Program-made: the position numbers and the translations under genes
DNA from: Candidatus Omnitrophota bacterium
Lineage (GTDB): Bacteria; Omnitrophota; Omnitrophia; Omnitrophales; Aquincolibacteriaceae
NCBI GenBank assembly: GCA_043821445.1
Contig: JBDRCT010000031.1
Location: forward strand, 35,620 to 99,619
DNA length: 64,000 nt
Reading direction: 5' to 3'
Shown here: piece by piece, positions 3,345 to 49,294 of the stretch
Layout of the letters: each line of letters begins with the position of its first letter
Position numbering within the stretch: position 1 is the stretch's first letter
The notes under the pieces: model-generated
Seen by the model: the letters and a program-made list of their open reading frames with translations, nothing else
What the model was told of the DNA's origin: nothing
The model's database searches: none

Positions 3345-3360
3345 TAAGGAAAGGTACAAA

Positions 3361-8877: not shown

Positions 8878-8996
8878 AAGGTTAATGGGACTAGTCCCGG
8901 CAACCGTTGATAAAAAGAAAATAGAGGCCAGGGCATGTGATGGAACTTTATGTGAACGTGGGTTGTCTTACAAGACAGGAAAGGGAGGGTGTCAAA

Positions 8997-18438: not shown

Positions 18439-21400
18439 ATGAAGCGTTCATTTTCATTTCCCCTCAGATGGGTTGCGTTTTGCATTGCGATGATCTTTGG
18501 CTGGAATCAGATCGTTTGGGCGGGGGAGATTCTTCCGCGGGATTACATCGTTCCTTCAGAACAGCCTGCCACTACGACGTCTGTTTCTGTCCCAGTCGTG
18601 TCGACAGGAGCGATGCCGGTTCAGATGCTGACGACAACGGATTTTTTAGCGAATAAGCGGGGGCCTTTATCTCCCGCAACTAAAGACACGTCTGAAATCA
18701 TTCCAAAGGCGGTCGCTTCTCCAAATACCGCTCGTTATGAATATGAGCGCTATGATTTTCAAGATACGCTTGATCTTTTGAGGCCTGAATTTGCAAGCGC
18801 TGTGATCGTGAAAGAGATCACGGCTGAGGATTTGAAGAAACTTTCCGAGCTGTCGTTTGAAACCGGCGTGATCGTATTGCATGGCGAAATCGTGCTCTTC
18901 ACCTCAGGGAGTGAAGATGAGATTGGCATGTTGTCCGCCGTTAAGATGCTCGCAGACCAAGCGACTTTTATTTCTCATACGCATCCAAGCATTTATTCTG
19001 CAGGAGGCCCGAGCGGTGGTGATATTAACGAAGCCGTTGCAGCACCGGGCGAGGAGTATGTGATCACGCATACCGGAGTTTATGCGTATAACAATGAAGG
19101 GATTTTGAATAATGGCGATTCCCATGGCTATGACTGGTATCTCGAAAAACTTAAGGAAGCCGTGGGGGCTTCAAAAGCGGAACAAGATCAAATTGAGGCG
19201 AGAAAGGATCTCAATGAATTTGTCACAGCTCAGGATGCGTATAACCGCGCCAAGGAAGATGAACGCGAGACCTTCCGGATGGGCGGCACGCTTTCTTATG
19301 CCTCAGGGCTGAAAACTTCGAACATTACGACTTTGTCCGGGAGCCCTTACCCCTACATAACAACCGGTTCAAGCGCTGGGACTGCACTTTCCTATGCCTC
19401 TTCTACCAGTCAATTTAATTTGAGTTATAACGTACCGGGCGCGAGCGACGTCTCGGGTTTTACAATCTCTTTTGATAATGCAAGCACTCCAACAATGGAG
19501 ACGCAGAACATCAGCATTCTTACCAATCTCGTGTTTGGGCTTAAGGGGCCGGCCACTTCGATCAAACTCGAAATCGTAGATATCAATAATGCAAAAGACA
19601 CATTCACGCTGACCGGCATCTCGAACAAAACAGAACGGTTCTGGCGAGTACCTGTCTCGGCGATCCTCAACACGATCGACAAAACCCGGATCACGCAACT
19701 GAATTTTATCATGACGCAGGCTAACACAACCTCGTCCAGAAGGACCGGCGTAATTTCAATCCGCTCCAAGGGCTTGAAAACGACTGCACCTTCTCAACCG
19801 GCTGTTACCTCAACGGTACCTGCTGCGACGAATCAAACAACCCTTCTGCTGTCGGGAACCAAAGAGGCGAACTCGGCCATTTTCATCAATGGCACACAAG
19901 TAGTAGCTCGTGACACTTCCACGACTTGGACATCTACCGTGAATCTTACAACCGAAGGAAATAATACCTTCAATATAACAGCCAAGAACTCCATCGGACT
20001 GGTAAGCACCGCGAAAACTGTAACAATTCAGCGGGATACGGTTGTCCCGACTGGTTCGATCAATATCAATTCGGGAGCCGCCTACACAGCCTCAGTCGCA
20101 GTGACTTTAGATCTTTCGTCAACTGATTCCGGAAGCGGAATCAGTACGATGAGTTTTTCGATGGATAATGTGACCTGGACCACGCCCGAAACTTATGCGG
20201 ATTCCAAGGCTTTTACGCTTCCAATCGGCGACGGTGATAAAACTGTTTATGTGAAGTACTACGATAAGGCTGGGAACGTCAGCGCCGTTTTTTCAAAGCA
20301 TATTCAATTGAGAGCAACCGGTCCGGTGGTTGTGATTGCGACTGGAACTCCGAGTCTGATCAAGGTAAAGACGCTCACGATCAATTACACGGTGGATGGC
20401 GTTGTGAAAGAAAAGACATTCACGGATCTTGCGGAAGGTGAAAACATGTTAACGATTACGGAACAGGATGAAGCTGGTAATGAAACATCCGTTAACTGGG
20501 CCGTGACTCTAGACACAATTCCCCCTGCGGTGGTGGTGACGAACGCTGTTCCGAGTCTGACGAATCAGGCCGCGCTCGTGGTGGATTACACAGCGGATGG
20601 CGTAGTGAAGCAGAAGACCTTCACACTTGCGGAAGGTGACAATGCAGGACTGACGATCAGGGAAGAAGATGCTGCGGGGAATGTTCGGATGATTACTTTA
20701 TCGAACATCGTGCTGGATACGGTGGCTCCGGTGATCGTGGTGACGAGCGCTGTTCCGAGTCTGACGAATCAGGCCGCGCTCGTGGTGGATTACACGGTGG
20801 ATGGCGTAGTGAAGCAGAAGACCTTCACGCTTGCGGAAGGTGACAATGCCGGCCTGACGATTACAGAAGAAGATACTGCGGGAAATGCTCAAACGATCAC
20901 GTTAGCGAATGTGGTGCTAGATACGGTGGCTCCGGTGATCGTGGTGACGAGCGCTGTTCCGAGCCTGACGAATCAGGCCGCGCTCGTGGTGGATTACACG
21001 GTGGATGGCGTAGTGAAGCAGAAGACCTTCATGCTTGCGGAAGGCGATAACACCGGCCTGACGATCACGGAAGAAGATGCCGCGACAAATTCAAGGACGG
21101 TCACCCTATCCAAGGTAATGCTGGATACAGTCCCCCCCGCGATCATGATCGATCCCGCAACGCCACATCTGATAAGTGTGAATACGTTCACTGTCAGCTA
21201 CACCGTAGATGGTGTGTCAAAACTAAAGACCTTTGCCAGTTTGGTAGAAGGTGAGAATGCGCTCACCGTCACAGAAACCGATCTTGCGGGGAACAGAACG
21301 ACCTTGACCCATAGTGTGACTTATACACCTCTCACGGCCATTGCCTTTCCTGTTCTTGAACTCCGTTCTCCGCAAATCGTTACAACACCCAATTATGAAT

Positions 21401-24400
21401 TAATTTATGCCGTGGACGGAACGGAAAAAAGAGAGACCTACGCTTTACAGGAGGGCGTAAATCTTCTTACGATCGAAGAGTCCAGCGCTGCCGGTAAAGT
21501 AATCGCACATTATCTGGTGGTGCTCAATGTAATTGCCGATCCTGTCTTTCCGGCGAATGAGACCGAACTCATTTTCAACCTGAACGGAACCGACGCCGCG
21601 CTTGTCGATCCAAACTTCGATGCTTCAGGATTGATCCAGGCGGGATGGATCAAATCCAAGGATAGGACTGCTTATCGGCTTTCCGGGGGACTGCTTGCGG
21701 AAGAATTCCGGTCCGATGGTACGCATATTTATTATGATTTCTTAGGACGCATTCATTCAAAAATAGACAAAAACAAAAAGATTACCAGCTATCAGTATAA
21801 GATCAATGCTACAGGCAACTTGTTAAGCGCTCATATTGAAGAAGGAAATAATCGGGTTGATCTGGATAGTAACGGTTTAATCCTCTTCTGGAAAAAAGGG
21901 GACGGAACAGAATTTTTCTTCGATTCCGGTCATTTGACCAAAATCAAAAAGGACGTGGTCGAATACCTCTATCAGCTCCGGCAAGTGGGCAGCGAATGGA
22001 TCTCGGAATCGATCGATCCTCTGCCTTTGGACTCTCCTTATCCTGCGTCGCTTCATTACACATCCGATTCGGTACTTTCCCGAACGGTGATGCCGGACGG
22101 GACCATTTATCAATATGATCTTTCGGGCGCGGTGACGCGCGTGGTGGATCCTGCCGGCAAAGAAACTCTTTATGATCCTGAGAAGGATCTGTTTGGCGCG
22201 TTCCATAGCTTTTCAGTGACCCGTGATGGTATTACAAGAATTTACGGCGAGCAAGGCAAGCTGACTCAATTGAAGGATGCGGACGGGACTGTTTTTACGA
22301 TCGATCAAGATAAGGTCGTAATGATCCAAAAACAGGAGGGCGCCTTATACCGGGACTTGGTTTATGACACGACTGGAACTCTTCAAAATGCCTTGGTGAA
22401 ACTGCCGGACGGAAGAGAACTTCTCATCGTCGGTCAGCAACTCACACAGATCAGGACGGTCGACGGAACGATCCTTGAAATCCAAAATGATAAACCGGCC
22501 AGGTCTTTGACCACAAACGGTCGCGTCTATCAGTACCGTGAGTCGACGGATGCAAACGGCAATCCCATTTTTATCGGTGACTTAACGGAATTTATCAACG
22601 ACAAAGGAAACCACATCTTTGTCGCAAACGGCCGGGTGAGCGGCATGGAAGAAACCCGTGGCAGTGTGTTGATCAAGACAGGATTTGCATACGATAACGC
22701 GGGAAGGATCGTCGAGGCCACGATCGATCAAGACGGTGTCCGGACCGCACGGTTCGTCTATGACTACCAAACTAGCGGAACCATTGTCACGAACAATGTG
22801 GGATCGATTCGTTATTACGACTCGTCCGGGACGCTCATGAAACTGATCACGCTCCGTGGGGAGGAGTACACGTTCAGCCAGATCACAGATCCAAGCGGAG
22901 CCGCCGGGTTCCTTCAAACCTTGATAAAAGTAGTCAACCAACTCGAAGGGACGATCGATTATGAGAACGGAAAACCGGTCCGGATCGTACGGCCGGACTC
23001 GATTGAAATGAAGGATATCGTTCTGAATCCCGACGATTCGCTTCTCAGCGCCGTTTTAATCTATCCCAGCGGGGCGGAAGGTCTTATCGAAGCGGGTGAA
23101 TTGAAACAGATCATCGAAACGGACGGCACGAAGAAAGAATATACGGCCGGTCTTCTTCGGAAGATCACTCGCCCCACTTTTGAAGCAACGAACTTCAGTT
23201 ATGCTTTTGATGTTTCGGGCAATCTCACTTCCGTCATCGTTCAGGACGGTTTAGGCTCCAGGACTTATACGACAGCAGGGATTCTGAGTTCTGCGGTCAA
23301 TCCGAGCGACGATATTTTTACCTATGATGCTTTGGGAAATTTGATCAAGGTCAAAACGAGCGCCAATGAAGAATTCAATTATTCAGGCCAGAATTTATCT
23401 TCCATCAAGTTTTCCACGGGGGAAATGCTGACCGGCATTGTTTTGAATGCGAACGGCAACCTTTCGGGAGGCACGTACGATCCCAAAGACGGTTCAATCT
23501 GGACGATCGCGGGCGGCGCGATAAGTCAGATCCGGGACGCAAGCGGGAATAATCTTTATTATTCAGGAGGGCGTGTCACTCAGATTGTTAAAATGAATGG
23601 CGACCGGATTACCTACAATACCTCCGGCCAGATCACTCAGATCACCTGGGCGGACGGTTCCTGCGCCCGTCAAATTACCACCAATTCTCAGGATGCATTG
23701 GTCAACGCGATCATTTATTCGCCCTCATTTGATAGCGCGGTGTTAAGCACTACGCTTTCCGGGATCGGGTCCATGGAAAGACCGCTGGTGAACGGAGTCC
23801 TTCAAACCCCCGGGTCGCAGGTCAGGACCGCGGGTAAGTTTTTTGACTTCAACGGGCTCTACTGGCGTGAAGTTAATTCGACCGCGTTACACGGAACGAC
23901 TCAGAATTACATCCGGGTCAAAATGACGGGTTCGAATTTCACGGTGAGTTTCTACGCCACGAATTACACGAACTCTCTTTTTAGTCAGCAAACCTATCAG
24001 TCCGCGGCAGGGTCTCCGTATGTCTACATCCCGCTTCCCGATCTTTCCGTAAAATATCTTTACGCGATCGAGATTTCCCCCAAAGGGAATGCCACGGTAG
24101 ATATCACGGACACTCCACTCGTTTTTTCGAGCGGGGACTATCAGCCCGTTGCATGGGTGAATACGGCCACCGCCTTTATAAATCAAAAAATAGTGCCGGG
24201 TTTTCCGGAAAGGATCACTGCGGCATTGTCCCAGAAAACGGCCTTGGAAAGCGCCTCTCAAGATTTTTCCGCTGCCGAAACCTTTAGTACGGTCAAAGTC
24301 AGCGATAGCCAATTCCAAATAGAAAGTCTCAAGAACGCGGTACTGCAAGCGCGACTGTCGCCGGATGCTGTTATCTCGGCCACTTATAACAGAGACACGA

Positions 24401-27400
24401 ACCTTCTTTTTACGGCCCACAGTGATCCTGCTTTTGATCCTGCGGCGGACGCAAACGGAGAATGGAAAAACTCGGTGTCCGGCTGGGAAGAGGATGGATT
24501 TGATTTTGCACCCGTCGTCACCGCGCCTTCCGGGGATGTGCCGCTTAAGATCGAATATGCCTCGAATGGCGGAAGCCAGACGGTGTCTTTTCAAAACGCA
24601 TCTCGGGCCATCTATCAAAACGATCGCATCGAGACCCTTATTACCCCGGAAGGGAAGACGGTTCATTACTCCTATGCCGCTGGGTCCAGTGATGTCGACC
24701 GGGTGATCTTCGACCCCGATCAAATCGACCCAGAAACGACCGAAGTGAAATACGAGTATGGAAAAATACGAGAGATTAGAAAAGCAGGGGCACTTGTCTA
24801 TCTTTACTCCTATGAATTTGACGATTTAGGGGACGAGATCACCGTGATCGAAGATACTGTAGAAAATCAGATCCGCCGGTTTTTGAAAGGAAAACTTATC
24901 TCGATAAGCAATTTAAATAGCGGCTTTAAGACGGTTTATGATTACGACGGCTCAGGCCGGATCGCGAAAGCAGTCACCTCCCGTTCGGGCCGCATCTTCG
25001 GCGCATTCGCTTATGCTTACTCCGGCGACGATACCCTGATCACCGAGGAAGCGACGGGTATTTCAAGGCGTTACGGCGCGGACGGGTTCCTGAAAGAATT
25101 GATCACGGCCAAAGATGAATTTTATAAATATTCCGTTCTTTCGGACGGACAAGCCGAGGACCTTCTGCTTCAGGAGCTCGTGAAGATCGTTACTTCCCGC
25201 GGCACGATCGAGTACAGCAGAGAAAAACCTGTTGAGATCACCGCCGCGGACGGTACCGTGATCAAAAACCTCATCGTCGAATCTTTCGTGGATGAAAATC
25301 ACATGACCCGCATGGTGATCCAACGAGCCGAAGTGCATTTGCCCGCTCCGGACGGAAGGATCGCCTTGATCGAAAAAGGGAAGGTGTTTTATATAAGCTC
25401 TCCGGGCGGAGAGATCCAGGAATTTGAGAATGGATTTTTGGAAAGACTGGTTAATGCCCAGGGTGAGATCACGGACCTCATTTACACGCGGAACGCCTCC
25501 GGGGAGATCGAATCGATCGGTGTAGAGGACAAGAACGGACTGAGGATTTATGACAGGAATGGACAATTGATTCGCGCGGTTCTGCCGGATACCACGCAGA
25601 TCGATTATGACGCGAGCGGCCAGTTGCTCCGGCTCCAGACTCCGGGCGGAGAAATATGGGGATATTCAGCGGGCAGTCTAAGTTCGATGACCTTGGCGGG
25701 GGGTGGCGGAAAAATCGAGCAGATTGTCTTAGATGCGTCAGGAAACGTGCAGTCCTGTGTTTACACTAAAGACGGCATCGTCACCACCATTCAAAACGGC
25801 GCCGTTGCCAGCAAAAAAACGTTGGATGGCACTCTTTTCATCTATGGCTCTTCCGGGAAAGTAGTTGAGATCCTGAAACCGGCGGGCGCGGGTTATGACC
25901 GGCTGATCTATGATGCGAACGGAGTCTTGACTTCCGTTGAACGCGCGGACGGTTCCCGTGCGCGTCAGATCACGGCCGATGCACAGGACACCTTGATCAA
26001 CGCGATCATTTACTCGCCCTTATTTGACGGTGCCGTGTTAAACGCAACGCTTCCCGGAATCGGGTCCAAGGAAAGACCTCTGGTGAACGGGGTCCTTCAA
26101 ACTCCCGGGTCGCAGGTCGGGACCGCCAACGAATTTTTTGACTTCAACGGGCTTTACTGGCGCAGTGTTAATTCAACCTCGTTGCACGGCGCGAATCAAA
26201 ATTATCTCCGGATCAAGATGATGGGTTCGAATTTTACGGTGAGTTTCTACTCCACCAATTACACGAACTCCCTCTTCAGTCAGCAAACTTATCAGTTTGT
26301 GGTCGAATCTCCGTATGTCTACATCCCGCTTTCCGATCTTTCCGTAAAATATCTTTATGCGATCGAGATTTCCCCCAAAGGGAATGTCGCGATGGATATC
26401 ACGGATACTCCGCTTGTTTTTTCGAGTGGGGATATGCCCGCTATGGATTGGACGGGGATCGCGAGCGGTTTTACGGATCAAAAAGACAGACCCGCAGTGC
26501 CGTCGATCATTAACGAGACTCTTTTTAAAAAAGCAGCTTTTGAGACCCAGGCCGCGGATCAATTCTTACTTCGGTCGCCGGACCAGCTTGATGAAGGCCA
26601 AGCTCAGACGTTCTACGATTCTGCTCTCGGCATCGTGAAGGGCGCGTTGCTTGAACCCGAAACGATCATTGCGGCGGCTTACCGGGCCTCTGACAGCACA
26701 CTCTTGATGGCTGCCCGTGCCAATAACACCGTGGCGCACTACGTCAACGGGCAGATCGACTATGTCACGGATCTGGACGGGAATTTGCTTATCGACCACG
26801 AGTATGACGCCGCTGGGGACCTGGTCGCGGTTCATCTCATGGATGCGAAGAAAAAATTAGAGGAGCAGATCATCGCTGCTCAGACGGAGGTCTCACGTCA
26901 GGAAACTGAGGCGCTGATGGCGCTTGCCGTTGAGCGCGGGCACGCGATCGAGGCGATCCAAAACAAATTGAATGAGGGCCTGGCTGCGATCAATGCCGAG
27001 CGGGAAAGGATCCGGCAGCTCAGTTCTCAGCGGGTCTGCCGCACAGTCCTGTTCTTTAAATCTTGCGAGAACGTTCAAGTCGATGTGAGCGCACCCCTTT
27101 CGGAACTCGATCAGATGGAGAAGGACCTTCGCGAAGAAACGGCCGTGGCGCTTGCCGGACTTGATGCCGTTGTGGCCCAGAAGAAAACAGAGATAGAAAC
27201 GGATGCCAAGGCGGCGTTTGTCGAATTAGAGAAGCAGCAGCTCACCACCTACCGCGAGATCCTGAAACAGGAATTAAGACCCGTTCTTTTCCATCACTAC
27301 CGGAAGATTCTCGGAAGAGATCCGTCCGAAGGCGAGATCGATACGTGGCTTAAGCGCGAGATCGGAGACGACCATGTGAGCCTCCTCTCATTTAAAGAGG

Positions 27401-30400
27401 CGGTCTCAGCCCGCGGGCTGAATTTTGCGGGGGCTTGGGTGGATCTTGACCAGTTGAAAGTCTTGTCAGGCTTGTCTCAAACCGGTGTTTTAGCCTCTCT
27501 CAAGGATGTCGGTTTTGTGATGGTGACGGACGTGAGCGGCGGGAATGTGACTTTTGTCCAACGGAGTCTCGGCAACCGGACCCAGGAACTGAAGATCGAG
27601 CTCGTGCCGTGGCTCGATGCGAACGGGGTGCCGATCCTGGATACCGGAGGGAATATCATTTGCGTCGAAAAATATGTCTTCGTTTCCAAGAATGACGGCT
27701 TCGGCGGCGAAGAAGTGACGGTGAGCGAGGACGAGTTCTTAAGCCGTTGGCTTAAAGAGAACAGCCTTAAGGGAGCGGTGTTCACCGATCAGCCGCTTGG
27801 GACGGGTTCCGTTCTTATGACGGACGAGGAGGCAAAGGCCATCTCCGGATTATCTTCCTGGGATATCCTTGTGGAATATTTCAAATCGGCGTTCGGGATC
27901 GATCCGGAGCGGGCCAACGTTCCGAAACTTATCAGAGAATTGAGCAGTAGTGAAGAATACAGTGTTCGTTTGGCGCAAGTGAACGCGATCAAAGCAGCGG
28001 TCCGGGATTTTCTGGACTTGTATCTCGCGTCGGACGAAGCGGGACGTTCCGCCAAGATCCAGTCTTTGGGCCTGGTCCCGGAAGAGGTCATTTCTATTAC
28101 ATCCCCGGAAATAGAAACGATCCTGGCCTGGCTCGATTCCCGCGACCTCCACTTCGGTCATTCCGCCTTTTTTGCGATCCAGCATTTGATCGAAGAAAAC
28201 AATGTTCAGGCGTCGCTTTTTGATATCGCCCGCGAAGCAATTCTAATCGATATCATGACGGGCGTGATCCATCCGCTCACGACCGGGGACCTGGAACTTT
28301 CCCTTTTTGCTCTCAACCGGGTTGCCAAAAACCGCGGCGTGCTCTTGACTCCCGCCAAAGTCACTTTCGAGGAACTCAAGCGCGAAGTCGTTCAAGGCAA
28401 GGGCGTTCTGGTTCATATGAACGGCAACCATTACGTCGTGGTGACCCAAATAGCACTCGCGGCCCGGACGGACGAAAATGGCGACCCTGTGCTGGATGAG
28501 CAAGGCGCTCCTGTCATGATCGAGGTCGTGACCTATATCGAAAAGAATGTGGGGCCGTCGGGCGAGGCGCAAACGCTCGCGCGGTCAGAATTTGAAAAGA
28601 TATGGATGGTGACCGCGGAGGGCGAGGGGATCGTGCTGACGCCGGCGGAAGTTTCGAACAACGCCACAATCATGACGGACCGGGAGACCCAGCAGATCAC
28701 GGGCGCGTTCTTCGGTTTTATCTTCGGGATCCTGAAGAAGATCTTTGATACCGTGATCCAGGTGGTGAAAGCTGTTTTTGAGGCTGTAAAGACGGTTTTG
28801 CGTTATGTCGTCGATCTTGTGGTCGATGTGGTCCGGGCTCTCACGGATTTCGTGTTGGAGCTCGGTAAAAGTCTCGTCTCGCTCGGGCAGTTCTTCTTTG
28901 AGGCCGTTCGTTTTGTCGGGGCCATTTTGAGCGGAGATCTGAACGGAGGGTTCCAGTCGCTCCAGCGGGCGCTCGGTCATTTCGGGAATTTCCTGTTCTT
29001 CGCCGCGGCGGTGGGTGGGTTCCTTGTGCCGGGGCTGGCCCCGCTTCAAGTGATCGGCTTCCAGGTCTTGAGCGTTGCCCTGAGCAAAGGGACCGGCGTC
29101 GTTCTGGATAAGATCGGGATCAAAAGCCCGGTAATCAAAAACCTGATCGGTAGTTTTATTACGGGCGGGGTCTTTGGCTTTGCCGGCGGTCAGATCGGAT
29201 CGGGGACCACGTTTTTAAACTCCGCATTGGCCAATCTTGCCATGTCGGGCGTCAATGAGCTTGCCCTGCATATCGGCCTTTCTCCTCCGATCGCGGCGAA
29301 CCTGGGTATTCTTGCGAGTATTATCACCGGCTCCGTGGAAGGCGGCGCAAGCCTCCCGGAAGCTTTCAAGACCGTCGCCCCGGACCTGATAAAAGAACTG
29401 ACCCTTTCCGGTGTATGGGCCCTCGGAACCTCCCTTGGCATCGACCCTCGTCTGACCTCGCTCATATCCCTGCCACTTGGAGCCGGTATCGGCGTTGGTT
29501 TTGACAGTTTACTTCACGCAAGCACGATCAATTTCGCCAGTCTTACGGCCGCTATCAAAAACGGTCTCGCCGCCGGTGCAAAATCGATCGGTTTCGATTT
29601 CGGGGGCGCGACAAGTCATCCGATTTTCGGTTCGCTTCTGAGTGGAAATATTTTAAGTTCTATCGGAAGCGCCATGGGGGACGGCAGCCTCTTCAGCGGC
29701 ATTCTGGATATTCTCAAAACGGCGGTCCTTATCCCGTTCAACGCCGCGAATGACATGGTCCAAATGACGCTTCAGGGGGTACGCAATTTTGATTCCTTGA
29801 TCCAGGAAAAAGGTCTTGCCGGAGCGCTGGAATCCCTGCTTACGTCCATATTCAGCCGCCAGACAATAGAAAAATTGTTAGGTTCCGGAGGCATTGGAGG
29901 ATTCGTCGGTTCTGTGGCAAAGATCCCCGCCACGCTCAACGGCCAAAGCGTTCTGGAACAGAAGTTCGACGGCACGACCTCTCTTTTTTATGACCTTGCG
30001 GGCAATTTTATCGGCAAAAAAGAGAATGGCGTCACGCAACTCGGCGCCTTTGGCTTCGATGTTGCCGGCAAATGGGCCCTTCTGGCCGGCCAGGTATTCG
30101 CGCCGCTTGCCGGTGGCTTGGCCTTTGCCGGAGAAGTGGCGGATGGTCAGCTCCGTAATGGAAAGGTCTATGATCCGAATGGCATTTTAGTCGGTACCCT
30201 GGATCCGGAAAAGGATGGCGAATTCATAGAAATCGACGGTCGCGATCCTCAAAATCCGGATTCCAATTCTTCCGGCAAATTCTGGTCCGGTATTTTTAAT
30301 CTTGCCACATTGGGACTGCAGTTCTTCTTCCAGGATGGAGTTTTGCGGAAGATCGAGTCCTCGGTTTCCAGCAACGCCGATGTGTCCAATTTGTTTAAAA

Positions 30401-31368
30401 GTAAATTTCTTTTTGGCAACGGGTTTAATAGCACAATGGTTCCCGAAGGAACACTAGATACGTTAATTCCGGCCTATAGCAACAACCTATTATTAGATGG
30501 TGTGATCAATTTAATGCAAACGTTAATGGTTTCCTTATACGAAACAACAGAGCTATTCGGAAATATGGGAGAGTGGGCGAGCGACTTCATCTACAGAATG
30601 GACGACAAGGATTTCTTTCAAAGCCTGCTTTCGGGGACCTTTACCGGAGTTCTCCCTGCTCTTTTTATGAACTGGCTCTTTCCCAATAATTTGGTCACGG
30701 AGGTTAGAAATAAACTCTTGGCCCTTGAAGATAGTCAGGGTTGTCTCGAAAAGGGGATCGCGTTCGCTCATTCAGGGTTTTTTGCCCCTCTTCTTGGCGT
30801 TTTAAGTGACACGCGTCCAGATGGCTCAAAATTTGATGTTCAGACTCTCATCAACTATGAAGGTCCTTATGTGGATTACAACGCATACATTGACAATCCT
30901 TATTTGAAACGTATTATCAACGTTTGGGGAACAGCTCCAACAATTTTCCCACCCCTAACAGGGCAGTGGACAGGGAATTACGTCATAGATCCTCGTTCGG
31001 GTGATTTGGTTCGAGAATTGGATCCAACGAAAAAGGATGTGCAGATCAGTGATTTTGGTCCACCGTTTATTGCTCCTGCGAATTTCACGGGGCTGGCGGA
31101 TATTGAGAATATCAATATCGAGATCATTGGAGCCCGGCACAATGACTTTGCGTATGATCCAATCGCTTGGAATATGGATCGCTATCTCCCTGAAGAACGT
31201 GCGAGAAAGATCAATCTCCTGACGAATCAATTTATGCGACAATTATATGGCGCCGTGGCACAAGATCAAGCCGAACCGGGTAAGTTGCTCTTATTCTTGC
31301 GAAACCATCCAAATGCCGAGCAAGACACCGTGACTGGGATTTGGCAAATTGATTTTGGCATAGCATGA
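18439..31368 (+). CDS. Giant secreted YD/RHS-repeat-like polymorphic-toxin-type protein (4309 aa)
   Basis: Uninterrupted 12.9 kb ORF. RBS GGAGA. Signal peptide. Ig-like repeat region (aa ~450-1000). Dozens of YDxxG(R/N)L YD-like repeats. Coiled coil. DUF4214-like YRKILGRDPSEGEIDTWL. C39-like GNHYVVV segment. A ~480-aa Gly-rich hydrophobic region. The last ~100 aa are homologous to the orphan cassette at 32396..32716. Stop overlaps the next gene's ATG (ATGA). Confidence 0.9.
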   Translation: MKRSFSFPLRWVAFCIAMIFGWNQIVWAGEILPRDYIVPSEQPATTTSVSVPVVSTGAMPVQMLTTTDFLANKRGPLSPATKDTSEIIPKAVASPNTARYEYERYDFQDTLDLLRPEFASAVIVKEITAEDLKKLSELSFETGVIVLHGEIVLFTSGSEDEIGMLSAVKMLADQATFISHTHPSIYSAGGPSGGDINEAVAAPGEEYVITHTGVYAYNNEGILNNGDSHGYDWYLEKLKEAVGASKAEQDQIEARKDLNEFVTAQDAYNRAKEDERETFRMGGTLSYASGLKTSNITTLSGSPYPYITTGSSAGTALSYASSTSQFNLSYNVPGASDVSGFTISFDNASTPTMETQNISILTNLVFGLKGPATSIKLEIVDINNAKDTFTLTGISNKTERFWRVPVSAILNTIDKTRITQLNFIMTQANTTSSRRTGVISIRSKGLKTTAPSQPAVTSTVPAATNQTTLLLSGTKEANSAIFINGTQVVARDTSTTWTSTVNLTTEGNNTFNITAKNSIGLVSTAKTVTIQRDTVVPTGSININSGAAYTASVAVTLDLSSTDSGSGISTMSFSMDNVTWTTPETYADSKAFTLPIGDGDKTVYVKYYDKAGNVSAVFSKHIQLRATGPVVVIATGTPSLIKVKTLTINYTVDGVVKEKTFTDLAEGENMLTITEQDEAGNETSVNWAVTLDTIPPAVVVTNAVPSLTNQAALVVDYTADGVVKQKTFTLAEGDNAGLTIREEDAAGNVRMITLSNIVLDTVAPVIVVTSAVPSLTNQAALVVDYTVDGVVKQKTFTLAEGDNAGLTITEEDTAGNAQTITLANVVLDTVAPVIVVTSAVPSLTNQAALVVDYTVDGVVKQKTFMLAEGDNTGLTITEEDAATNSRTVTLSKVMLDTVPPAIMIDPATPHLISVNTFTVSYTVDGVSKLKTFASLVEGENALTVTETDLAGNRTTLTHSVTYTPLTAIAFPVLELRSPQIVTTPNYELIYAVDGTEKRETYALQEGVNLLTIEESSAAGKVIAHYLVVLNVIADPVFPANETELIFNLNGTDAALVDPNFDASGLIQAGWIKSKDRTAYRLSGGLLAEEFRSDGTHIYYDFLGRIHSKIDKNKKITSYQYKINATGNLLSAHIEEGNNRVDLDSNGLILFWKKGDGTEFFFDSGHLTKIKKDVVEYLYQLRQVGSEWISESIDPLPLDSPYPASLHYTSDSVLSRTVMPDGTIYQYDLSGAVTRVVDPAGKETLYDPEKDLFGAFHSFSVTRDGITRIYGEQGKLTQLKDADGTVFTIDQDKVVMIQKQEGALYRDLVYDTTGTLQNALVKLPDGRELLIVGQQLTQIRTVDGTILEIQNDKPARSLTTNGRVYQYRESTDANGNPIFIGDLTEFINDKGNHIFVANGRVSGMEETRGSVLIKTGFAYDNAGRIVEATIDQDGVRTARFVYDYQTSGTIVTNNVGSIRYYDSSGTLMKLITLRGEEYTFSQITDPSGAAGFLQTLIKVVNQLEGTIDYENGKPVRIVRPDSIEMKDIVLNPDDSLLSAVLIYPSGAEGLIEAGELKQIIETDGTKKEYTAGLLRKITRPTFEATNFSYAFDVSGNLTSVIVQDGLGSRTYTTAGILSSAVNPSDDIFTYDALGNLIKVKTSANEEFNYSGQNLSSIKFSTGEMLTGIVLNANGNLSGGTYDPKDGSIWTIAGGAISQIRDASGNNLYYSGGRVTQIVKMNGDRITYNTSGQITQITWADGSCARQITTNSQDALVNAIIYSPSFDSAVLSTTLSGIGSMERPLVNGVLQTPGSQVRTAGKFFDFNGLYWREVNSTALHGTTQNYIRVKMTGSNFTVSFYATNYTNSLFSQQTYQSAAGSPYVYIPLPDLSVKYLYAIEISPKGNATVDITDTPLVFSSGDYQPVAWVNTATAFINQKIVPGFPERITAALSQKTALESASQDFSAAETFSTVKVSDSQFQIESLKNAVLQARLSPDAVISATYNRDTNLLFTAHSDPAFDPAADANGEWKNSVSGWEEDGFDFAPVVTAPSGDVPLKIEYASNGGSQTVSFQNASRAIYQNDRIETLITPEGKTVHYSYAAGSSDVDRVIFDPDQIDPETTEVKYEYGKIREIRKAGALVYLYSYEFDDLGDEITVIEDTVENQIRRFLKGKLISISNLNSGFKTVYDYDGSGRIAKAVTSRSGRIFGAFAYAYSGDDTLITEEATGISRRYGADGFLKELITAKDEFYKYSVLSDGQAEDLLLQELVKIVTSRGTIEYSREKPVEITAADGTVIKNLIVESFVDENHMTRMVIQRAEVHLPAPDGRIALIEKGKVFYISSPGGEIQEFENGFLERLVNAQGEITDLIYTRNASGEIESIGVEDKNGLRIYDRNGQLIRAVLPDTTQIDYDASGQLLRLQTPGGEIWGYSAGSLSSMTLAGGGGKIEQIVLDASGNVQSCVYTKDGIVTTIQNGAVASKKTLDGTLFIYGSSGKVVEILKPAGAGYDRLIYDANGVLTSVERADGSRARQITADAQDTLINAIIYSPLFDGAVLNATLPGIGSKERPLVNGVLQTPGSQVGTANEFFDFNGLYWRSVNSTSLHGANQNYLRIKMMGSNFTVSFYSTNYTNSLFSQQTYQFVVESPYVYIPLSDLSVKYLYAIEISPKGNVAMDITDTPLVFSSGDMPAMDWTGIASGFTDQKDRPAVPSIINETLFKKAAFETQAADQFLLRSPDQLDEGQAQTFYDSALGIVKGALLEPETIIAAAYRASDSTLLMAARANNTVAHYVNGQIDYVTDLDGNLLIDHEYDAAGDLVAVHLMDAKKKLEEQIIAAQTEVSRQETEALMALAVERGHAIEAIQNKLNEGLAAINAERERIRQLSSQRVCRTVLFFKSCENVQVDVSAPLSELDQMEKDLREETAVALAGLDAVVAQKKTEIETDAKAAFVELEKQQLTTYREILKQELRPVLFHHYRKILGRDPSEGEIDTWLKREIGDDHVSLLSFKEAVSARGLNFAGAWVDLDQLKVLSGLSQTGVLASLKDVGFVMVTDVSGGNVTFVQRSLGNRTQELKIELVPWLDANGVPILDTGGNIICVEKYVFVSKNDGFGGEEVTVSEDEFLSRWLKENSLKGAVFTDQPLGTGSVLMTDEEAKAISGLSSWDILVEYFKSAFGIDPERANVPKLIRELSSSEEYSVRLAQVNAIKAAVRDFLDLYLASDEAGRSAKIQSLGLVPEEVISITSPEIETILAWLDSRDLHFGHSAFFAIQHLIEENNVQASLFDIAREAILIDIMTGVIHPLTTGDLELSLFALNRVAKNRGVLLTPAKVTFEELKREVVQGKGVLVHMNGNHYVVVTQIALAARTDENGDPVLDEQGAPVMIEVVTYIEKNVGPSGEAQTLARSEFEKIWMVTAEGEGIVLTPAEVSNNATIMTDRETQQITGAFFGFIFGILKKIFDTVIQVVKAVFEAVKTVLRYVVDLVVDVVRALTDFVLELGKSLVSLGQFFFEAVRFVGAILSGDLNGGFQSLQRALGHFGNFLFFAAAVGGFLVPGLAPLQVIGFQVLSVALSKGTGVVLDKIGIKSPVIKNLIGSFITGGVFGFAGGQIGSGTTFLNSALANLAMSGVNELALHIGLSPPIAANLGILASIITGSVEGGASLPEAFKTVAPDLIKELTLSGVWALGTSLGIDPRLTSLISLPLGAGIGVGFDSLLHASTINFASLTAAIKNGLAAGAKSIGFDFGGATSHPIFGSLLSGNILSSIGSAMGDGSLFSGILDILKTAVLIPFNAANDMVQMTLQGVRNFDSLIQEKGLAGALESLLTSIFSRQTIEKLLGSGGIGGFVGSVAKIPATLNGQSVLEQKFDGTTSLFYDLAGNFIGKKENGVTQLGAFGFDVAGKWALLAGQVFAPLAGGLAFAGEVADGQLRNGKVYDPNGILVGTLDPEKDGEFIEIDGRDPQNPDSNSSGKFWSGIFNLATLGLQFFFQDGVLRKIESSVSSNADVSNLFKSKFLFGNGFNSTMVPEGTLDTLIPAYSNNLLLDGVINLMQTLMVSLYETTELFGNMGEWASDFIYRMDDKDFFQSLLSGTFTGVLPALFMNWLFPNNLVTEVRNKLLALEDSQGCLEKGIAFAHSGFFAPLLGVLSDTRPDGSKFDVQTLINYEGPYVDYNAYIDNPYLKRIINVWGTAPTIFPPLTGQWTGNYVIDPRSGDLVRELDPTKKDVQISDFGPPFIAPANFTGLADIENINIEIIGARHNDFAYDPIAWNMDRYLPEERARKINLLTNQFMRQLYGAVAQDQAEPGKLLLFLRNHPNAEQDTVTGIWQIDFGIA
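20519..21150 (+). repeat. Tandem 210-nt (70-aa) near-identical coding repeats within the giant gene
   Basis: Three almost identical copies (VAPVIVVTSAVPSLTNQAALVVDYTVDGVVKQKTFTLAEGDNAGLTITEED...) plus more divergent flanking copies from ~20320 to ~21540. Confidence 0.85.
23641..24140 (+). repeat. Internal ~500-nt segmental duplication in the giant gene (copy 1)
   Basis: ITWADGSCARQITTNSQDALVNAIIYSP...SVKYLYAIEISPKGN...PLVFSSGD is repeated at 25936..26435 (about 80% nt identity). Confidence 0.85.
25936..26435 (+). repeat. Internal ~500-nt segmental duplication in the giant gene (copy 2)
   Basis: VERADGSRARQITADAQDTLINAIIYSP...SVKYLYAIEISPKGN...PLVFSSGD. Confidence 0.85.
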
Positions 31369-31874
31369 AAAAAACATTTATTGTTTCCATGATTTTAATA
31401 GTCTTGGGGCTTACTGTCGCAATGCTATTTTTTCAAAAAGAAAATTCAGGATCGAGCGTTCAACCCATAGGTGAAAAAGGGATTTCTGTAGGAAGTCGAA
31501 GCGGAGCGTTTATTTCTATGGACGCAAAGCAAAAACCGCATCCTGAAACTCTAAAAGAGGTAGAGGACTATAAACGTGATATTAAAGCAATTGATGATGC
31601 GTGGGCCAATATTAGGACTGGGAGTTCTTACTTTAAGAATGGTGACTATGCAAAGGCCGCAGAAGCATATGAAAAGGCTTATGTAATCGGCGGTGGGATA
31701 AAGCATGTGAGTGGTTTTGATTTAGCTGACGTATATGAAAAGCTTGGTCGTTATGATGATGCCGTAACAGTTTTGGACAATATGATTAAAAATCGAGAAA
31801 CGAATGAGTATGGTATTCAGAAAGCCAGCGAAATTCGCACCTGCCTCCTTGCCGCTAAAGCCAAACAGCAATAG
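31365..31874 (+). CDS. Candidate immunity protein (TM + TPR-like, 169 aa) coupled to the giant gene
   Basis: ATG overlaps the giant-gene stop (gcATGAaa). N-terminal TM helix. TPR-like YFKNGDYAKAAEAYEKAY. Conserved tail FDLADVYEKLGRYDDA..NEYGIQKA..IR. Paralog at 32716. Confidence 0.6.
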   Translation: MKKTFIVSMILIVLGLTVAMLFFQKENSGSSVQPIGEKGISVGSRSGAFISMDAKQKPHPETLKEVEDYKRDIKAIDDAWANIRTGSSYFKNGDYAKAAEAYEKAYVIGGGIKHVSGFDLADVYEKLGRYDDAVTVLDNMIKNRETNEYGIQKASEIRTCLLAAKAKQQ

Positions 31875-31925: not shown

Positions 31926-31988
31926 ATCCGGTTCCGGGAATCGCTCAAGGAAACCGCGGTTGAGGCGGGCATCACGATCCCATGGTAA
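31926..31988 (+). pseudogene. Displaced 3'-end fragment of the 36238..37164 gene family
   Basis: CCGGTTCCGGGAATCGCTCAAGGAAACCGCGGTTGAGGCGGGCATCACGATCCCATGGTAA is near-identical to 37105..37164 (...RFRESLKETAVEAGLTIPW*). No upstream gene body. Confidence 0.7.
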
Positions 31989-32236
31989 TCCCTATGAATC
32001 CATTATGGCTGGCTGGCATAGCGGTCTTGGTTTTGAATCTTCCCTTCGGATTTTGGCGCGTCCACGTCCGGAAATTTTCACCCTCCTGGTTCCTGGCGGT
32101 CCATCTTCCCGTCCCGTTCGTGATCGCGATCCGCTTCCTCATGCGGCTTGGCTTTCATCCCGTCACGTATCCGGTCCTTGTGGGCGCGTTTTTTACGGGG
32201 CAATTCCTTGGCGGTAAGATCGCAAAATCGAAGTAG
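31982..32236 (+). CDS. Small hydrophobic membrane protein (84 aa)
   Basis: Two to three predicted TM helices. Lies between the two displaced gene-end fragments. ATG at 31982 or 31994. Confidence 0.4.
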   Translation: MVIPMNPLWLAGIAVLVLNLPFGFWRVHVRKFSPSWFLAVHLPVPFVIAIRFLMRLGFHPVTYPVLVGAFFTGQFLGGKIAKSK

Positions 32237-32238
32237 GG

Positions 32239-32390
32239 ATCCCGCAGTTATGTCTGTCCCCCCAAAAGGGACTGCCACAGGTTCTTGTCGGTGCCGGTGG
32301 GGACGAGCGTCGGACCTTGGAGGAACAGGATCTCCTGGCTTCCCGGCGGCGTGGCCGCGGTGCACCGAATGACGGGAACGCTTACGGAGA
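32239..32390 (-). pseudogene. Displaced 3'-end fragment of the 37188..38420 (-) gene family
   Basis: About 85% nt identity to 37188..37335. Encodes the conserved C-terminal tail ...SVPVIRC(T/I)A(A/S)TPPGSQEILFLQGP(T/M)LVP(T/A)GTD(K/Q)N(L/M)WQS(L/P)LGGQT. Homology ends abruptly at ~32390. Confidence 0.7.
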
Positions 32391-32719
32391 ATGGAGATTT
32401 TGGTCCGCCGACCTGGACTTTTGATGATGCTAACTTTACAGGCCCAGCAGGAATTGAAAATATTAATATCGAGATCATTGGGGCCAGACATAATGATTTT
32501 TCCTATGATCCTGCCGCTTGGAATTCGAATCCCTATGAACCGGAAGCAGAAGCGCAGGAAATTAATCGGAAAACGAATTTATTTATGAGAGATTTATACA
32601 AATTTGCTCTTCAGGATCAAACCAATGCGGGTGTTTTATCGAATTTTCCGAGAACCGAATCTGTCGTGAGTTATAACTCATCTAGAAATATTTGGGTCGT
32701 AGATTTTGGTGATGTATGA
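32285..32719 (+). CDS. Orphan toxin C-terminal-domain cassette (homolog of the giant protein C-terminus)
   Basis: From ~32396 (DFGPPTWTFDDANFTGPAGIENINIEIIGARHNDFSYDPAAWN...) it is about 50% identical to giant aa ~4195-4309. The upstream part of the ORF (32285..32395) is antisense to the displaced fragment, so an independent start is doubtful. Stop overlaps the next ATG (ATGA). Confidence 0.55.
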   Translation: MSVPVGTSVGPWRNRISWLPGGVAAVHRMTGTLTENGDFGPPTWTFDDANFTGPAGIENINIEIIGARHNDFSYDPAAWNSNPYEPEAEAQEINRKTNLFMRDLYKFALQDQTNAGVLSNFPRTESVVSYNSSRNIWVVDFGDV

Positions 32720-33225
32720 AAAATAGAACGCTTTTCATTCTGGGCTTTATTTTTACTATTCTGATGCTCGTTATTTTCTTATTTCGGCAAACGAATACAT
32801 TCCAATCTAAGCTTGAAATCTGGCCGATGGGAGACGGTAAGGGGATTTTCGTTGGAGAAAGTAAATCCCGATATATGGAACGTAATTCCCAAGGCCAATC
32901 TGAAGAGATAAGGAAAAGAATAGAGCAACATGAGGTTGATGTCGGTGCCATTGAGGAAGCACATCGATACAGGATGCAGGCCTATGGTTTTATTAAAAAT
33001 GGCCAGTTGAAGGAGGCTGCCGTAGCGTTTGAGAAAGCATATGCGGCAAAAAGGCATGCTGTCACAGTTTTTGATTTAGCTGACGTATATGAAAAGCTCG
33101 GTCGTTATGATGACGCTATCACTATTTTAGATAATATGGTTCTAAGTAAAGAAACCAATGAATACGGGATCCAAAAAGCCGTTGAAATTCGTGCCCGTCT
33201 CCTAGCTGCCAAAGCCAAACCGTAA
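32716..33225 (+). CDS. Candidate immunity protein paralog (169 aa) of 31365..31874
   Basis: Same length, N-terminal TM helix and conserved tail (VFDLADVYEKLGRYDDAITILDNMV..ETNEYGIQKAVEIRARLLAAKAK). ATGA coupling to the orphan toxin domain. Confidence 0.6.
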   Translation: MKNRTLFILGFIFTILMLVIFLFRQTNTFQSKLEIWPMGDGKGIFVGESKSRYMERNSQGQSEEIRKRIEQHEVDVGAIEEAHRYRMQAYGFIKNGQLKEAAVAFEKAYAAKRHAVTVFDLADVYEKLGRYDDAITILDNMVLSKETNEYGIQKAVEIRARLLAAKAKP

Positions 33226-33432: not shown

Positions 33433-33543
33433 ATGAGATATAAAAAATTATCCGATCTGCAACGGGACATTGAAACGTTTGACGGAAAATGGGAGCTGTC
33501 GCCTTGCGTGGTATACTTACCTCAGAAAAAAGATCAGCAATGA
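33433..33543 (+). pseudogene. Truncated 5' fragment of a 36238-family paralog
   Basis: 33356..33505 is about 85% identical to 36160..36310. MRYKKLSDLQRDIETFDGKWELSP matches MRCRKLADLQKDIETFDGKWELSP, then diverges and stops after 36 codons. Confidence 0.65.
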
Positions 33544-33550
33544 GGTGCTT

Positions 33551-34096
33551 ATGACAGCCGTTAACATAGAAAAAGAGATCGAGAAGCATTTTTTCCCGGA
33601 CCCGATTCCTTCCTATGGCCCCCCTAAATTCATTATTTTTACGGGATGTGTCGGATCGGGAAAAACGACCGAGCGGCGGAAGCATTTCTCCCAAAGCTAT
33701 GTCACGGTCGATGCCGGCGAGATCTTCTGCTCGCTGACGAAAGGCGGTCACGGCGCTTTCGGCAAAGACTATTTTTATGAAATGAACACCATCGGCTTCA
33801 GGGTCCTGGAGCGCGCCGTCACGGAAAAACGGAATATTGTCATGGAGATCGTAGGCGCGGAGCCTGAGATACTGAAGGGCTTCGACGACATTATTTCGAG
33901 CTTCGGATATAAAGTTGATTTTCAGGCTGTGAATTGTGAACCCGCAGAAGCGTATGAACGCCACGTGAATGCCGGCATCAATGATCCCTCGTATATTTCC
34001 GCCCATCATACCGAACCTTATCATCAGAAATGGGTTGCTGACCTGTGGGATAAAATGACAGGTCAAAAAGAAGATGATGCGCGGCAAAACAACTGA
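33551..34096 (+). CDS. P-loop NTPase, zeta-toxin/AAA_33-like kinase
   Basis: Walker A motif FTGCVGSGKTT and Walker B-like NIVMEIVGAE. Size and layout fit small zeta-toxin-type kinases. ATG at 33551 (MTAVNIEKE). Confidence 0.5.
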   Translation: MTAVNIEKEIEKHFFPDPIPSYGPPKFIIFTGCVGSGKTTERRKHFSQSYVTVDAGEIFCSLTKGGHGAFGKDYFYEMNTIGFRVLERAVTEKRNIVMEIVGAEPEILKGFDDIISSFGYKVDFQAVNCEPAEAYERHVNAGINDPSYISAHHTEPYHQKWVADLWDKMTGQKEDDARQNN

Positions 34097-34232: not shown

Positions 34233-34802
34233 GTGCAAGCTATAATCGCCATCATGAGAAGGTTTTTCCTTGCTCTTGCGATATTCTTTTTATTTCCTAC
34301 CCTCGTGTTTTCTGCTGATCCTATCAGTACGTCTCATGTCTATTTCTCTCCGAAGGGTGGCTGCACCAAAGCCATGACGGATGCCATAGGACAAGCCAAG
34401 CAACCGGTCTTGGTTCAGGCATACTCTTTTACTTCATACCCCATAGCTCAGGCTCTCATTGAGGCCGGGAAGAGAGGCGTTAAGGTCGAAGCCATTGTTG
34501 ATGGGAAACAGATCCATGAGAAGAAAACAAAGTGAGGGTTGGTGGCCAAGGGGGGAGTGATCACTTATCTGGACCATGCTCATTCGACCGCCCATAACAA
34601 GGTGATGATGATTGATGGCAAGACCATTATGACTGGCTCTTTCAACTTTACAAATGCTGCTCAAGAACGTAATGCGGAGGATGTGTTGATTTTGGATGCT
34701 CCGGCTTTGGCGACTGAATATACGAAAAACTGGAAAATACATCAAAAGCGCTCAGAACTTTATAAGATTGAGAACAGGCGGAGTTGTGGGGATGAGCATT
34801 AA
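34233..34802 (+). pseudogene. Phospholipase D-family (Nuc-like) nuclease interrupted by an in-frame TGA
   Basis: Signal peptide. Nuc-like N-terminus (VLVQAYSFTSYPIAQALIEAGKRGVKV). In-frame TGA at 34533..34535. Same frame continues with the HKD motif HNKVMMIDGKTIMTGSFNFTNAAQERN. Confidence 0.6.
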
Positions 34803-38420: not shown

Positions 38421-38764
38421 GGCGGTCTGCGCTCCTCTTTTTATTCCCGATTTTCAGTACCGTTCTCCATTTATTTTAAAGGTTAACGGTACCCTACTGC
38501 AAACCCTAAAAATCAATTGGAATGCAGCATGATGGATTCTTTTATGACGCGAAAAAGCTAACATCAGAAACGTCTTTTTGCAATAGCTCCTGGAATAAAA
38601 AGACAGATGACTTCACCCGTCTTTGCCCGTTCCCAAGGTACCCCCGTTATCTTTCCATTGACGAAGTTCCTCAGATAGAGCAATATATAGCAAAAGGTGC
38701 GCCTTGGAAGTGCCGATGGTGATATCAACACGACAAAAAGCATATGGGAAAAACAGGGGGAACC

Positions 38765-45843: not shown

Positions 45844-45869
45844 AGTGAGCGAGGAGATCGACTGCGGGT

Positions 45870-49278: not shown

Positions 49279-49294
49279 TCGCCGGAGAAATCAC

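Follow-up and report, generated by a model that had tools for sequence, protein, structure and literature searches.

We analyzed a 64,000-nucleotide stretch of DNA from a Candidatus Omnitrophota bacterium (contig JBDRCT010000031.1, positions 35,620 to 99,619), hereafter the window, and describe a module in the C-terminal part of a giant Rhs-like protein of 4,309 amino acids that it encodes. The module is real and conserved. It joins a C39-like peptidase domain, in which Ser stands in the position of the catalytic Cys, to a motif resembling a double-glycine leader and to a Gly-rich hydrophobic region, and a variable C-terminal domain follows. We see an even chance that this is a pre-toxin cassette in which C39-type self-cleavage releases a hydrophobic head, a set of repeats and an exchangeable enzyme, the head and repeats then engaging the envelope of a target cell. 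By analogy with known systems, the best-supported reading is that a polymorphic toxin has taken up the logic of bacteriocin maturation (C39 peptidase, double-glycine leader and hydrophobic Gly-rich cargo). What may be new here is a release and entry cassette in such a toxin, with a candidate Ser-type C39 peptidase. The coordinates of all features are given in Table 1.

A C39-like domain with a candidate Ser nucleophile

When the query domain was matched alone against the Pfam C39 profile (PF03412) it scored 19.5 bits, under the gathering score of 22 bits, and relatives carrying the same module scored 23.9-39.8 bits. These matches cover only profile positions ~45-130, the N-terminal third of the domain being too divergent for Pfam. 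A profile built from 35 sequences of the domain matched the peptidase domain of PCAT1 in the PDB (E 1.7e-9) as well as LahT150 (3.3e-4) and ComA (0.066), and in its alignment to PCAT1 the catalytic-His motif is matched by G-N-H-Y-V and the A-D-P motif by Y-x-(D/E)-P. Foldseek by itself returned only papain-like toxins (E ~6e-3). The domain has a papain-like alpha+beta fold that can be superimposed on the peptidase domains of PCAT, ComA and LahT.

The original prediction, made from the nucleotide sequence, had pointed to a C39-like segment in which no catalytic Cys could be seen. The two peptides that it quoted lie where it placed them (LHFGHSAFFAIQHL at amino acid 3237, nucleotide 28147, and GVLVHMNGNHYVVVTQ at amino acid 3322, nucleotide 28402), and the Cys is indeed missing, since the nucleophile position is occupied by Ser3242. 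This residue begins helix H26-38 of the AlphaFold2 (AF2) model, the place of the catalytic Cys in C39 peptidases. In the corresponding column of 123 aligned relatives we found Ser in 121 (98%) and Cys in 2. Conservation of the rest of the domain was counted over 132 aligned modules: His3331 is retained in 97% and the residue at position 3368 is acidic in 91% (Asp in 61, Glu in 59). The spacing between His and Asp is 16 in most members, the query carrying a 21-residue insertion; LahT150, with His101 and Asp117, also has a spacing of 16 (PMC6363468).

A further His, His3238, lies four residues before Ser3242 and is invariant except in P0110 and P0119, which have Asp or Asn there. These two proteins are the two Cys-bearing relatives, and exactly the ones without this His. 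With n = 2 the covariation is suggestive of an active site adapted to a Ser nucleophile. Pfam run on the two Cys-bearing relatives left the Cys region unaligned, so that no column match between Ser3242 and the Pfam Cys was obtained. Taken as a whole the alignments argue strongly that Ser3242 is the equivalent of the catalytic Cys of C39, and the Ser form may be catalytically active. Because the Cys, the oxyanion Gln and the fusion to an ATP-binding cassette (ABC) transporter are all missing, the domain is not a plain C39 member.

A double-glycine-leader-like motif in the same chain

The end of the C39-like domain is followed, 7-18 residues downstream, by a motif whose family consensus reads L(-12) S/T(-11) x x E(-8) A x x I/V(-4) R/K(-3) G(-2) A/S(-1), then F, then F/W. 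The frequencies at the main positions are 90% for L/I(-12), 75% for E/Q(-8), 94% for I/V(-4), 97% for G(-2) and 97% for A/S/G(-1). At the level of sequence the family motif matches the signature published for double-glycine leaders (PMC6363468), in which a GG, GA or GS site is preceded by Leu-12 and Glu-8 and a groove accommodates the hydrophobic residues of positions -4, -7 and -12. A relaxed regular expression for the motif has a single match in the 4,309 residues of the query, at 3412-3423; in 151 family proteins (438,731 amino acids) 99 of 144 matches fall at this boundary and 45 elsewhere. In the AF2 model the motif segment has pLDDT 85-97, and positions -10 to -6 form a short helix that, as modeled, resembles the two-turn helix of a bound leader (PMC6363468). 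Cleavage would take place after G3422-A3423.

The hydrophobic region divides into subdomains

The original prediction had described the ~480 residues after the C39-like segment as one Gly-rich hydrophobic block with many GxxxG-like pairs. Its view of the composition holds: in amino acids 3422-3900 Gly makes up 14.8% of the residues versus 7.6% in the rest of the protein, Leu, Ala, Phe, Val and Ile are abundant, and charged residues account for 3-12% in most 40-residue windows. The peptides GGFLVPGLAPLQVIGF and GSFITGGVFGFAGGQIGSG are likewise found where it placed them, at amino acids 3526 and 3571. The block is however not uniform. From a leader-like motif it passes to an amphipathic or transmembrane (TM) head and four repeats, and a conserved helical segment then leads to a beta-rich subdomain. 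The pairs exceed the expectation from composition modestly, with 16 GxxxG versus 10.1 +/- 2.6 in shuffled sequences and 30 [GAS]xxx[GAS]xxx[GAS] versus 17.3 +/- 4.2.

In the query the head contains long amphipathic helices (hydrophobic moment, muH, 0.55-0.69) plus one TM-grade segment, amino acids 3512-3556, which alone reaches the classical TM threshold (KD19 >= 1.6). At least one TM-grade segment lies just after the motif in 127 of 131 modules, and an uncharged run of 20 or more residues directly follows the motif in 77 of them. In most relatives the head is an uncharged TM-grade stretch that starts at +1, while in the query and several relatives it is amphipathic and charged. The repeats were recovered by hhalign with a probability of 96.7% between R2 and R3 (E 4.8e-10) and 93% between R1 and R3, compared with less than 1% for flanking controls of like composition.

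Searches with the hydrophobic block alone against Pfam and NCBIfam gave no meaningful match, the best being Acr30-35 and HMD (E > 0.1). For TcdA_TcdB_pore there was no Pfam match at E <= 10, and no PDB sequence or fold match, the fold search being a weak test with a poor model. Two other candidates were rejected. For a relation to tape-measure proteins, the PDB profile matches were to phage and tailocin proteins only (9j1k, E 1.4e-3; 6v8i, E 2.9e-3) and the compositional bias is very high; a degenerate ABC transmembrane domain was discarded since ABC_membrane gave no match and the match to PCAT1 stops at the elbow region.

The module is widespread and under strong purifying selection

Searching other proteins for the block, as had been proposed from the nucleotide sequence, proved productive. 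A HMMER scan of 1.84 billion cluster representatives, with a profile in which the C39-like domain and the block form one unit, found the module in at least 393 representatives at E <= 1e-3 and in 151 at E <= 1e-30. Among the 150 matches listed, most proteins have 2,000-7,000 amino acids, and the module spans ~720 profile positions and always leaves ~300-500 amino acids to the C-terminus. A word-index similarity search retrieved two relatives with the single query and none with the 35-sequence alignment, a limit of the index. Among the relatives P0001 is 88% identical in the module and carries another C-terminal domain, and P0002 is 40% identical and carries a third kind. A profile search of genomes led to one close locus, L003, from a metagenome-assembled genome of a fen (Candidatus Omnitrophota bacterium isolate fen_1321, PLLJ01000038.1), which is 86% identical over the module; a distant family member, MDD4202291.1, is also annotated as Candidatus Omnitrophota.

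Ka/Ks values calculated against the L003 ortholog are 0.086 for the C39-like domain, 0.024 for the motif plus head, 0.097 for the repeats and 0.124 for the Rhs body. The motif plus head, 96.7% identical to L003, is the most constrained part of the protein, and the module is under strong purifying selection. In a further locus, L001, the module begins an open reading frame (ORF) directly after an IS200/RAYT-like tyrosine transposase gene (L001 2-568, HYCLMGNHVHQLL). This arrangement suggests that the unit from the C39-like domain to the C-terminal domain (P0002) can exist as a stand-alone, displaced or mobilised element.

A variable C-terminal domain, immunity candidates and an orphan cassette

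Nucleotide identity to L003 is 84% over 20533-30089 (up to amino acid 3884), is lost after this point and comes back at 31994-32237 and from 37180. The C-terminal domains of the query and its L003 ortholog are only 26% identical versus 81-97% identity in the module. The beta-rich subdomain is the junction of conserved and variable sequence, as seen both in the alignment to P0001 and P0002 and in the end of L003 homology at nucleotide 30089. Over the family the C-terminal domains of 128 members form 29 clusters, one of which has a weak match to Tox-ART-HYD1. Close relatives that share a conserved body and differ in the C-terminal domain are what is found in polymorphic toxins.

The C-terminal domain of the window protein belongs to the largest superfamily and has no match in Pfam, NCBIfam or PDB sequences. 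We compared 51 domains of this kind, which were picked for an x-S-G-x motif, so that the invariance of Ser4112 results from the selection; N-G and His4234 are invariant as well, and an Asp is present in 78%. The order of these residues is that of the alpha/beta-hydrolase triad, and the domain is probably a lipase- or esterase-like enzyme of this fold.

A small ORF overlaps the stop codon of the toxin gene in three loci. In the window it encodes a TPR-repeat protein, in L001 a three-TM protein and in L002 a signal-peptide protein, and these immunity candidates are all extracytoplasmic or membrane proteins. This suggests the envelope as the site of action of the putative toxin. Further downstream, the orphan C-terminal-domain fragment and the TPR paralog have, from their sequences, the layout of a classical orphan cassette. 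In its architecture the locus fits the definition of a polymorphic toxin system, with putative toxin and immunity roles.

Two more ORFs were seen in this region. An 84-amino-acid polytopic membrane protein is encoded at 31982-32236, between the immunity candidate and the orphan cassette; its ORF has 90% nucleotide identity to L003 16924-17167 and has been kept although the flanking toxin and immunity genes were swapped. Just downstream of the toxin locus, the ORF at 33470-34096 encodes a Zeta_toxin / AAA_33 kinase-like domain (E 8.5e-6).

Table 1 Features of the giant protein and of the genes that follow it (window coordinates).
Feature	Amino acids	Nucleotides	Strand	Basis or remark
Giant ORF, ~12.9 kb, host protein of the module	4,309 in total	18439..31368	+	
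C39-like peptidase domain	3216-3405	28084..28653	+	Profile match, fold, residue conservation
Invariant His	His3238	28150-28152	+	Alignment
Candidate triad	Ser3242, His3331, Glu3368	28162-28164, 28429-28431, 28540-28542	+	Alignment
Leader-like motif MTDRETQQITGA	3412-3423	28672..28707	+	Family consensus, sole regular-expression match, AF2
Predicted scissile bond	between A3423 and F3424	between 28707 and 28708	+	After G3422-A3423
Hydrophobic/amphipathic head	3424-3535	28708..29043	+	Hydropathy, muH, Ka/Ks 0.024
Four tandem ~55-residue Gly/Ala/Ser-rich helical repeats with G-h-(D/S)-P turns	3536-3760	29044..29718	+	hhalign
Conserved helical segment with LIQEKGLAGALESLLTSIFSRQTIEKLL	3761-3828	29719..29922	+	Alignment, AF2
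Beta-rich subdomain ending I-x-I-D-G	3829-3934	29923..30240	+	AF2 pLDDT 72-89, nine strands
Variable C-terminal domain, putative alpha/beta-hydrolase-like toxin (NG, Ser4112, His4234)	3935-4309	30241..31365	+	26% identity to ortholog, motif
Candidate immunity protein, N-terminal membrane anchor or signal plus TPR repeats	169 in total	31365..31874	+	Overlaps toxin stop codon
Orphan C-terminal-domain fragment		32285..32719	+	55% identical to last ~105 residues of giant protein, E=4e-25
Second immunity paralog	169 in total	32716..33225	+	44% identical to first

Architecture of the giant protein

From its N-terminus the protein comprises a Sec-type signal peptide, Ig-like repeats, RHS/YD repeats, a coiled coil, the module and the variable C-terminal domain. 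Pfam identified RHS_repeat (PF05593, E=9.5e-22) and the Ig-like Big_13, and NCBIfam gave YD_repeat_2x / TIGR01643 matches, so that the repeats typical of Rhs proteins are present. As for an Rhs-associated core, no NCBIfam core domain matched and a regular expression did not find the PxxxxDPxGL aspartyl autoprotease motif. Of the features of CdiA, neither the TPS domain nor FHA repeats or VENN had a Pfam or NCBIfam match, and the VENN string is absent. A motif search found no RTX repeats, and ABC_membrane and ABC_tran had no Pfam match anywhere in the protein.

Several other features of the protein were noted. Just after the signal peptide (amino acids ~100-230, window 18740-19130) lies a JAB/MPN-like metal-binding signature, ISHTHPSIYSAGGPSGGD, i.e. 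HxH-x9-S-x2-D, which is visibly kept in P0011, P0013, P0014, P0015 and P0020 and where Pfam gives no match; from this signature, the region could be a second processing peptidase. Three tandem, near-identical Ig-like units of ~68 residues, each with VPSLTNQAALVVDYT, are encoded at 20548-21160 (amino acids 704, 772 and 840). The Rhs-like body is duplicated internally (~23660-24140 versus ~25950-26430, amino acids ~1740-1900 versus ~2505-2665), the identical strings LVNGVLQTPGSQV, FFDFNGLYWR, SVKYLYAIEISPKGN and DTPLVFSSGD recurring at an offset of 765 residues. A self-BLAST of the protein for internal duplication was empty and string searches revealed this one instead; it also gave a second blastn match to L003. 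Finally, a conserved 'YR.ILGRDPS..E' motif reminiscent of DUF4214, on which Pfam is silent, is encoded at 27300-27345 (amino acids ~2950-2975). It follows a coiled coil with a conserved Cys pair, RVCRTVLFFKSCE (amino acid 2865), and lies upstream of the C39-like domain in most relatives.

Other genes in the window

The other ORFs that we scanned in the window include those for a FadL-type outer-membrane protein, radical-SAM enzymes and glycosyltransferases, and no ABC or C39 transporter was among them. A PLD/Nuc-like gene at 34233-34802, with the HKD-type motif HNKVMMIDGKTIMTGSFNFT, has one in-frame stop between 34535 and 34539, and may be a pseudogene, be read through or contain a sequencing error. 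Three paralogous small membrane-anchored proteins with MORN-like repeats (YYENGQL.../YKDGK.EG) are encoded at 34696-35214, 38744-39349 and 40113-40631. Two single-domain response-regulator paralogs of 134 amino acids, with 59.5% identity, lie at some distance on either side of the toxin region (17474-17878 and 40757-41161). At 8937-10877 three tandem paralogs encode a small secreted protein with repeated LNLTPEQREKLLEQRNDP, Spy/CpxP-like in look, and follow sigma-70 ECF-like and anti-sigma-like genes (7779-8877). A gene cluster at 41461-50305 comprises five B12-binding radical-SAM enzymes, with two family-2 glycosyltransferases set between them. On the minus strand, 37188-38420 encodes a secreted protein with three Ig-like repeats (Big_13 / Glucodextran_B-type) similar to those of the giant protein, in a region with 88% nucleotide identity to the end of L003.

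Discussion

We propose that the embedded C39-type domain would cut its own chain, with Ser3242 as nucleophile together with His3331 and Glu/Asp3368, aided by the family-specific His3238. The substrate would be supplied in cis by the leader-type motif, docking as a short helix on the C39-like domain, and a cut after G3422-A3423 would free a C-terminal fragment of ~890 residues. This fragment would be like an oversized class II bacteriocin or microcin, peptides that C39 peptidases naturally have as cargo. Its head, hydrophobic or amphipathic, and its four Gly-rich helical repeats would insert into the envelope of the target cell, carrying the exchangeable C-terminal enzyme. The original prediction had offered a membrane-insertion or translocation module, or an autoprocessing site, as an interpretation of the hydrophobic region; the present analysis supports it in part, cleavage and membrane activity being the steps that we infer. 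The most far-reaching version, in which this would be the first C39 peptidase with a Ser nucleophile, acting in cis on an internal leader and freeing a ~890-residue 'mega-bacteriocin' from a giant Rhs-like surface filament, is one that we put forward tentatively and regard as somewhat doubtful.

Several observations weigh against the proposed self-cleaving cassette. The AF2 model of amino acids 3408-3940 is poor (pLDDT 59, pTM 0.37), with helices that lack confident packing, and a Foldseek search of the PDB with it, a weak test given the quality of the model, gave a best E of 0.027 and TM-scores of at most 0.16. Ser-substituted papain-fold domains can be catalytically dead, as in Plasmodium SERA5, and in our family the oxyanion Gln expected six residues before the nucleophile is absent, Asp or Ser standing there. 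C39-like domains of the HlyB type bind their substrate without cutting it (PMC6363468). Given the N-terminal Sec signal, the TM-grade segments could equally be stop-transfer anchors in the producer; and a protein of 4,309 residues would have to cross the outer membrane of the producer.

The stop-transfer possibility can be extended to a full alternative, in which TM helices tether the ectodomain to the membrane of the producing cell and the C39-like domain, placed at the membrane surface like its counterpart beside the TM domain of PCAT transporters, cuts at the double-glycine site to shed the 3,400-residue filament, the C-terminal remainder staying behind. Besides the signal peptide, this would fit the uncharged TM-grade stretch that begins at +1 in most relatives (20 or more uncharged residues in 77 of 131) and the order C39-then-TM, which mimics PCAT1, the HMMER alignment running into the PCAT1 elbow/TM1 region; West-Roberts et al. 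also take the TM regions after the C-terminal C39-like domain of an Omnitrophota giant as anchors. However an anchor explains neither the swap of the ~375 residues after the block between orthologs that are 84% identical nor the 29 clusters of C-terminal domains, the immunity-like genes and the orphan pair. In addition the amphipathic and charged head of the query and several relatives is not TM-like, and ~300 residues of conserved repeats plus a folded beta subdomain exceed the needs of an anchor. We consider self-shedding from an anchor unlikely.

The likeness to HlyB leads to a second alternative, a non-catalytic latch or chaperone that would bind the leader-like helix and shield or position the head during export, any release being left to another protease or to a mechanical or conformational trigger on contact. 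Binding requires neither the Ser (or Cys only), the His (97%) and the acid (91%) that are kept at the exact positions and spacing of the triad, nor G(-2) and a small residue at -1. HlyB-type domains moreover do not conserve a nucleophile at this position, where HlyB itself has Tyr. A pure latch is in our opinion improbable as well. Much less probable still is that a distinct peptidase-containing ABC transporter (PCAT) or type I secretion system recognizes the internal motif, processes the protein in trans and exports its C-terminal fragment, with the embedded domain as a decoy or adaptor. The motif is a canonical PCAT recognition sequence, but the scanned ORFs of the window and the examined flanks of L001-L003 contain no ABC or C39-ABC transporter gene, the protein has its own N-terminal Sec signal, and a 'leader' of 3,400 residues would be without precedent. 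As for a low-complexity linker with a chance likeness to C39, the biased composition, a GxxxG count only ~2 standard deviations over shuffles and the sub-threshold Pfam score of the query might be quoted in its favor, but this counter-case, of which the original prediction had itself named the linker, is refuted by Ka/Ks values of 0.024-0.097 and by conservation throughout the family, and its probability is practically nil.

Compared with the C39 domains of AMS/PCAT exporters (LahT150, 6mpz; ComA, 5xe8; PCAT1, 4ry2/7n87), the domain of the self-cleaving cassette that we favor has Ser instead of Cys, with an additional invariant His four positions ahead of it, and lacks the oxyanion Gln. Its host is no ABC transporter but a giant with a Sec signal, within which it is found at residue ~3,200, and its substrate motif lies in the same chain, after the domain. 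In contrast to the HlyB-type C39-like domain (3zua), a strictly Ser or Cys nucleophile and the His and acid are kept, and the partner is a double-glycine leader and not an RTX domain. In class II bacteriocins and microcins (microcin V, E492) the GG/GA/GS site is followed by membrane-active cargo that is hydrophobic, carries little charge and is rich in Gly, Ala and Ser. Pfam and PDB profile searches found no sequence homology to these; here the cargo would have ~890 residues and an enzyme domain, and the leader is internal. In large clostridial and MARTX toxins, too, one chain unites an autoprocessing protease with a translocation region, hydrophobic or Gly-rich, and with one or more enzymatic effector domains. 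Their protease is however a Cys protease of clan CD activated by inositol hexakisphosphate (InsP6), their domain order is different and their targets are eukaryotic.

The locus resembles the polymorphic toxins surveyed by Zhang et al. 2012 in its long repeat body, conserved pre-toxin region, protease just before the variable C-terminal domain, downstream immunity gene and orphan cassettes. The releasing peptidases listed by these authors are HINT, ZU5, PrsW, caspase, MCF1-SHE, PVC-metallopeptidase and PLOTU, and C39 occurs there only as the toxin at the C-terminus, Tox-PL-C39, with C, H and D (PMC3482391). A Ser-type C39, an in-cis double-glycine site and a ~400-residue Gly-rich hydrophobic domain are not among the features of that survey (PMC3482391). 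In StbD CdiA-CT and other papain-like toxins (8ssk, 9l5u) a C39-like domain with Cys serves as the C-terminal toxin, whereas ours lies inside the chain, before the variable domain. C39 domains have been described in Omnitrophota giants, with speculation on self-cleavage, in two preprints (bioRxiv 10.1101/2023.11.21.568195; 10.64898/2026.06.07.730766), and West-Roberts et al. 2023 report one giant with a C-terminal C39-like domain followed by TM regions. Those giants are larger (>10,000-30,000 amino acids) and have TM regions and then SecA-like domains; neither preprint reports a Ser substitution, an in-cis leader, a repeat domain or polymorphic C-terminal domains accompanied by immunity genes.

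An active Ser form would add to the C39 peptidases a branch with a Ser nucleophile and an intramolecular mode of action, and a self-cleaving double-glycine protease cassette could serve as a tool for tag removal. The ~400-residue repeat domain has no Pfam or PDB relative and would represent a new domain for membrane entry or translocation. The Omnitrophota, which are ultra-small and uncultured, are believed to live on other cells, and their giant proteins are almost entirely unannotated. With this analysis one class of these giants receives a testable anatomy, that of a polymorphic toxin in whose conserved pre-toxin cassette a candidate cleavage bond and candidate catalytic residues are defined. 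If the proposed mechanism is true, it would provide a missing link in how a Sec-exported giant toxin that uses none of the type V, VI or VII (T5/T6/T7) secretion systems frees and delivers its warhead, and in its most far-reaching version the protein would be a contact weapon of the ultra-small, putatively predatory Omnitrophota.

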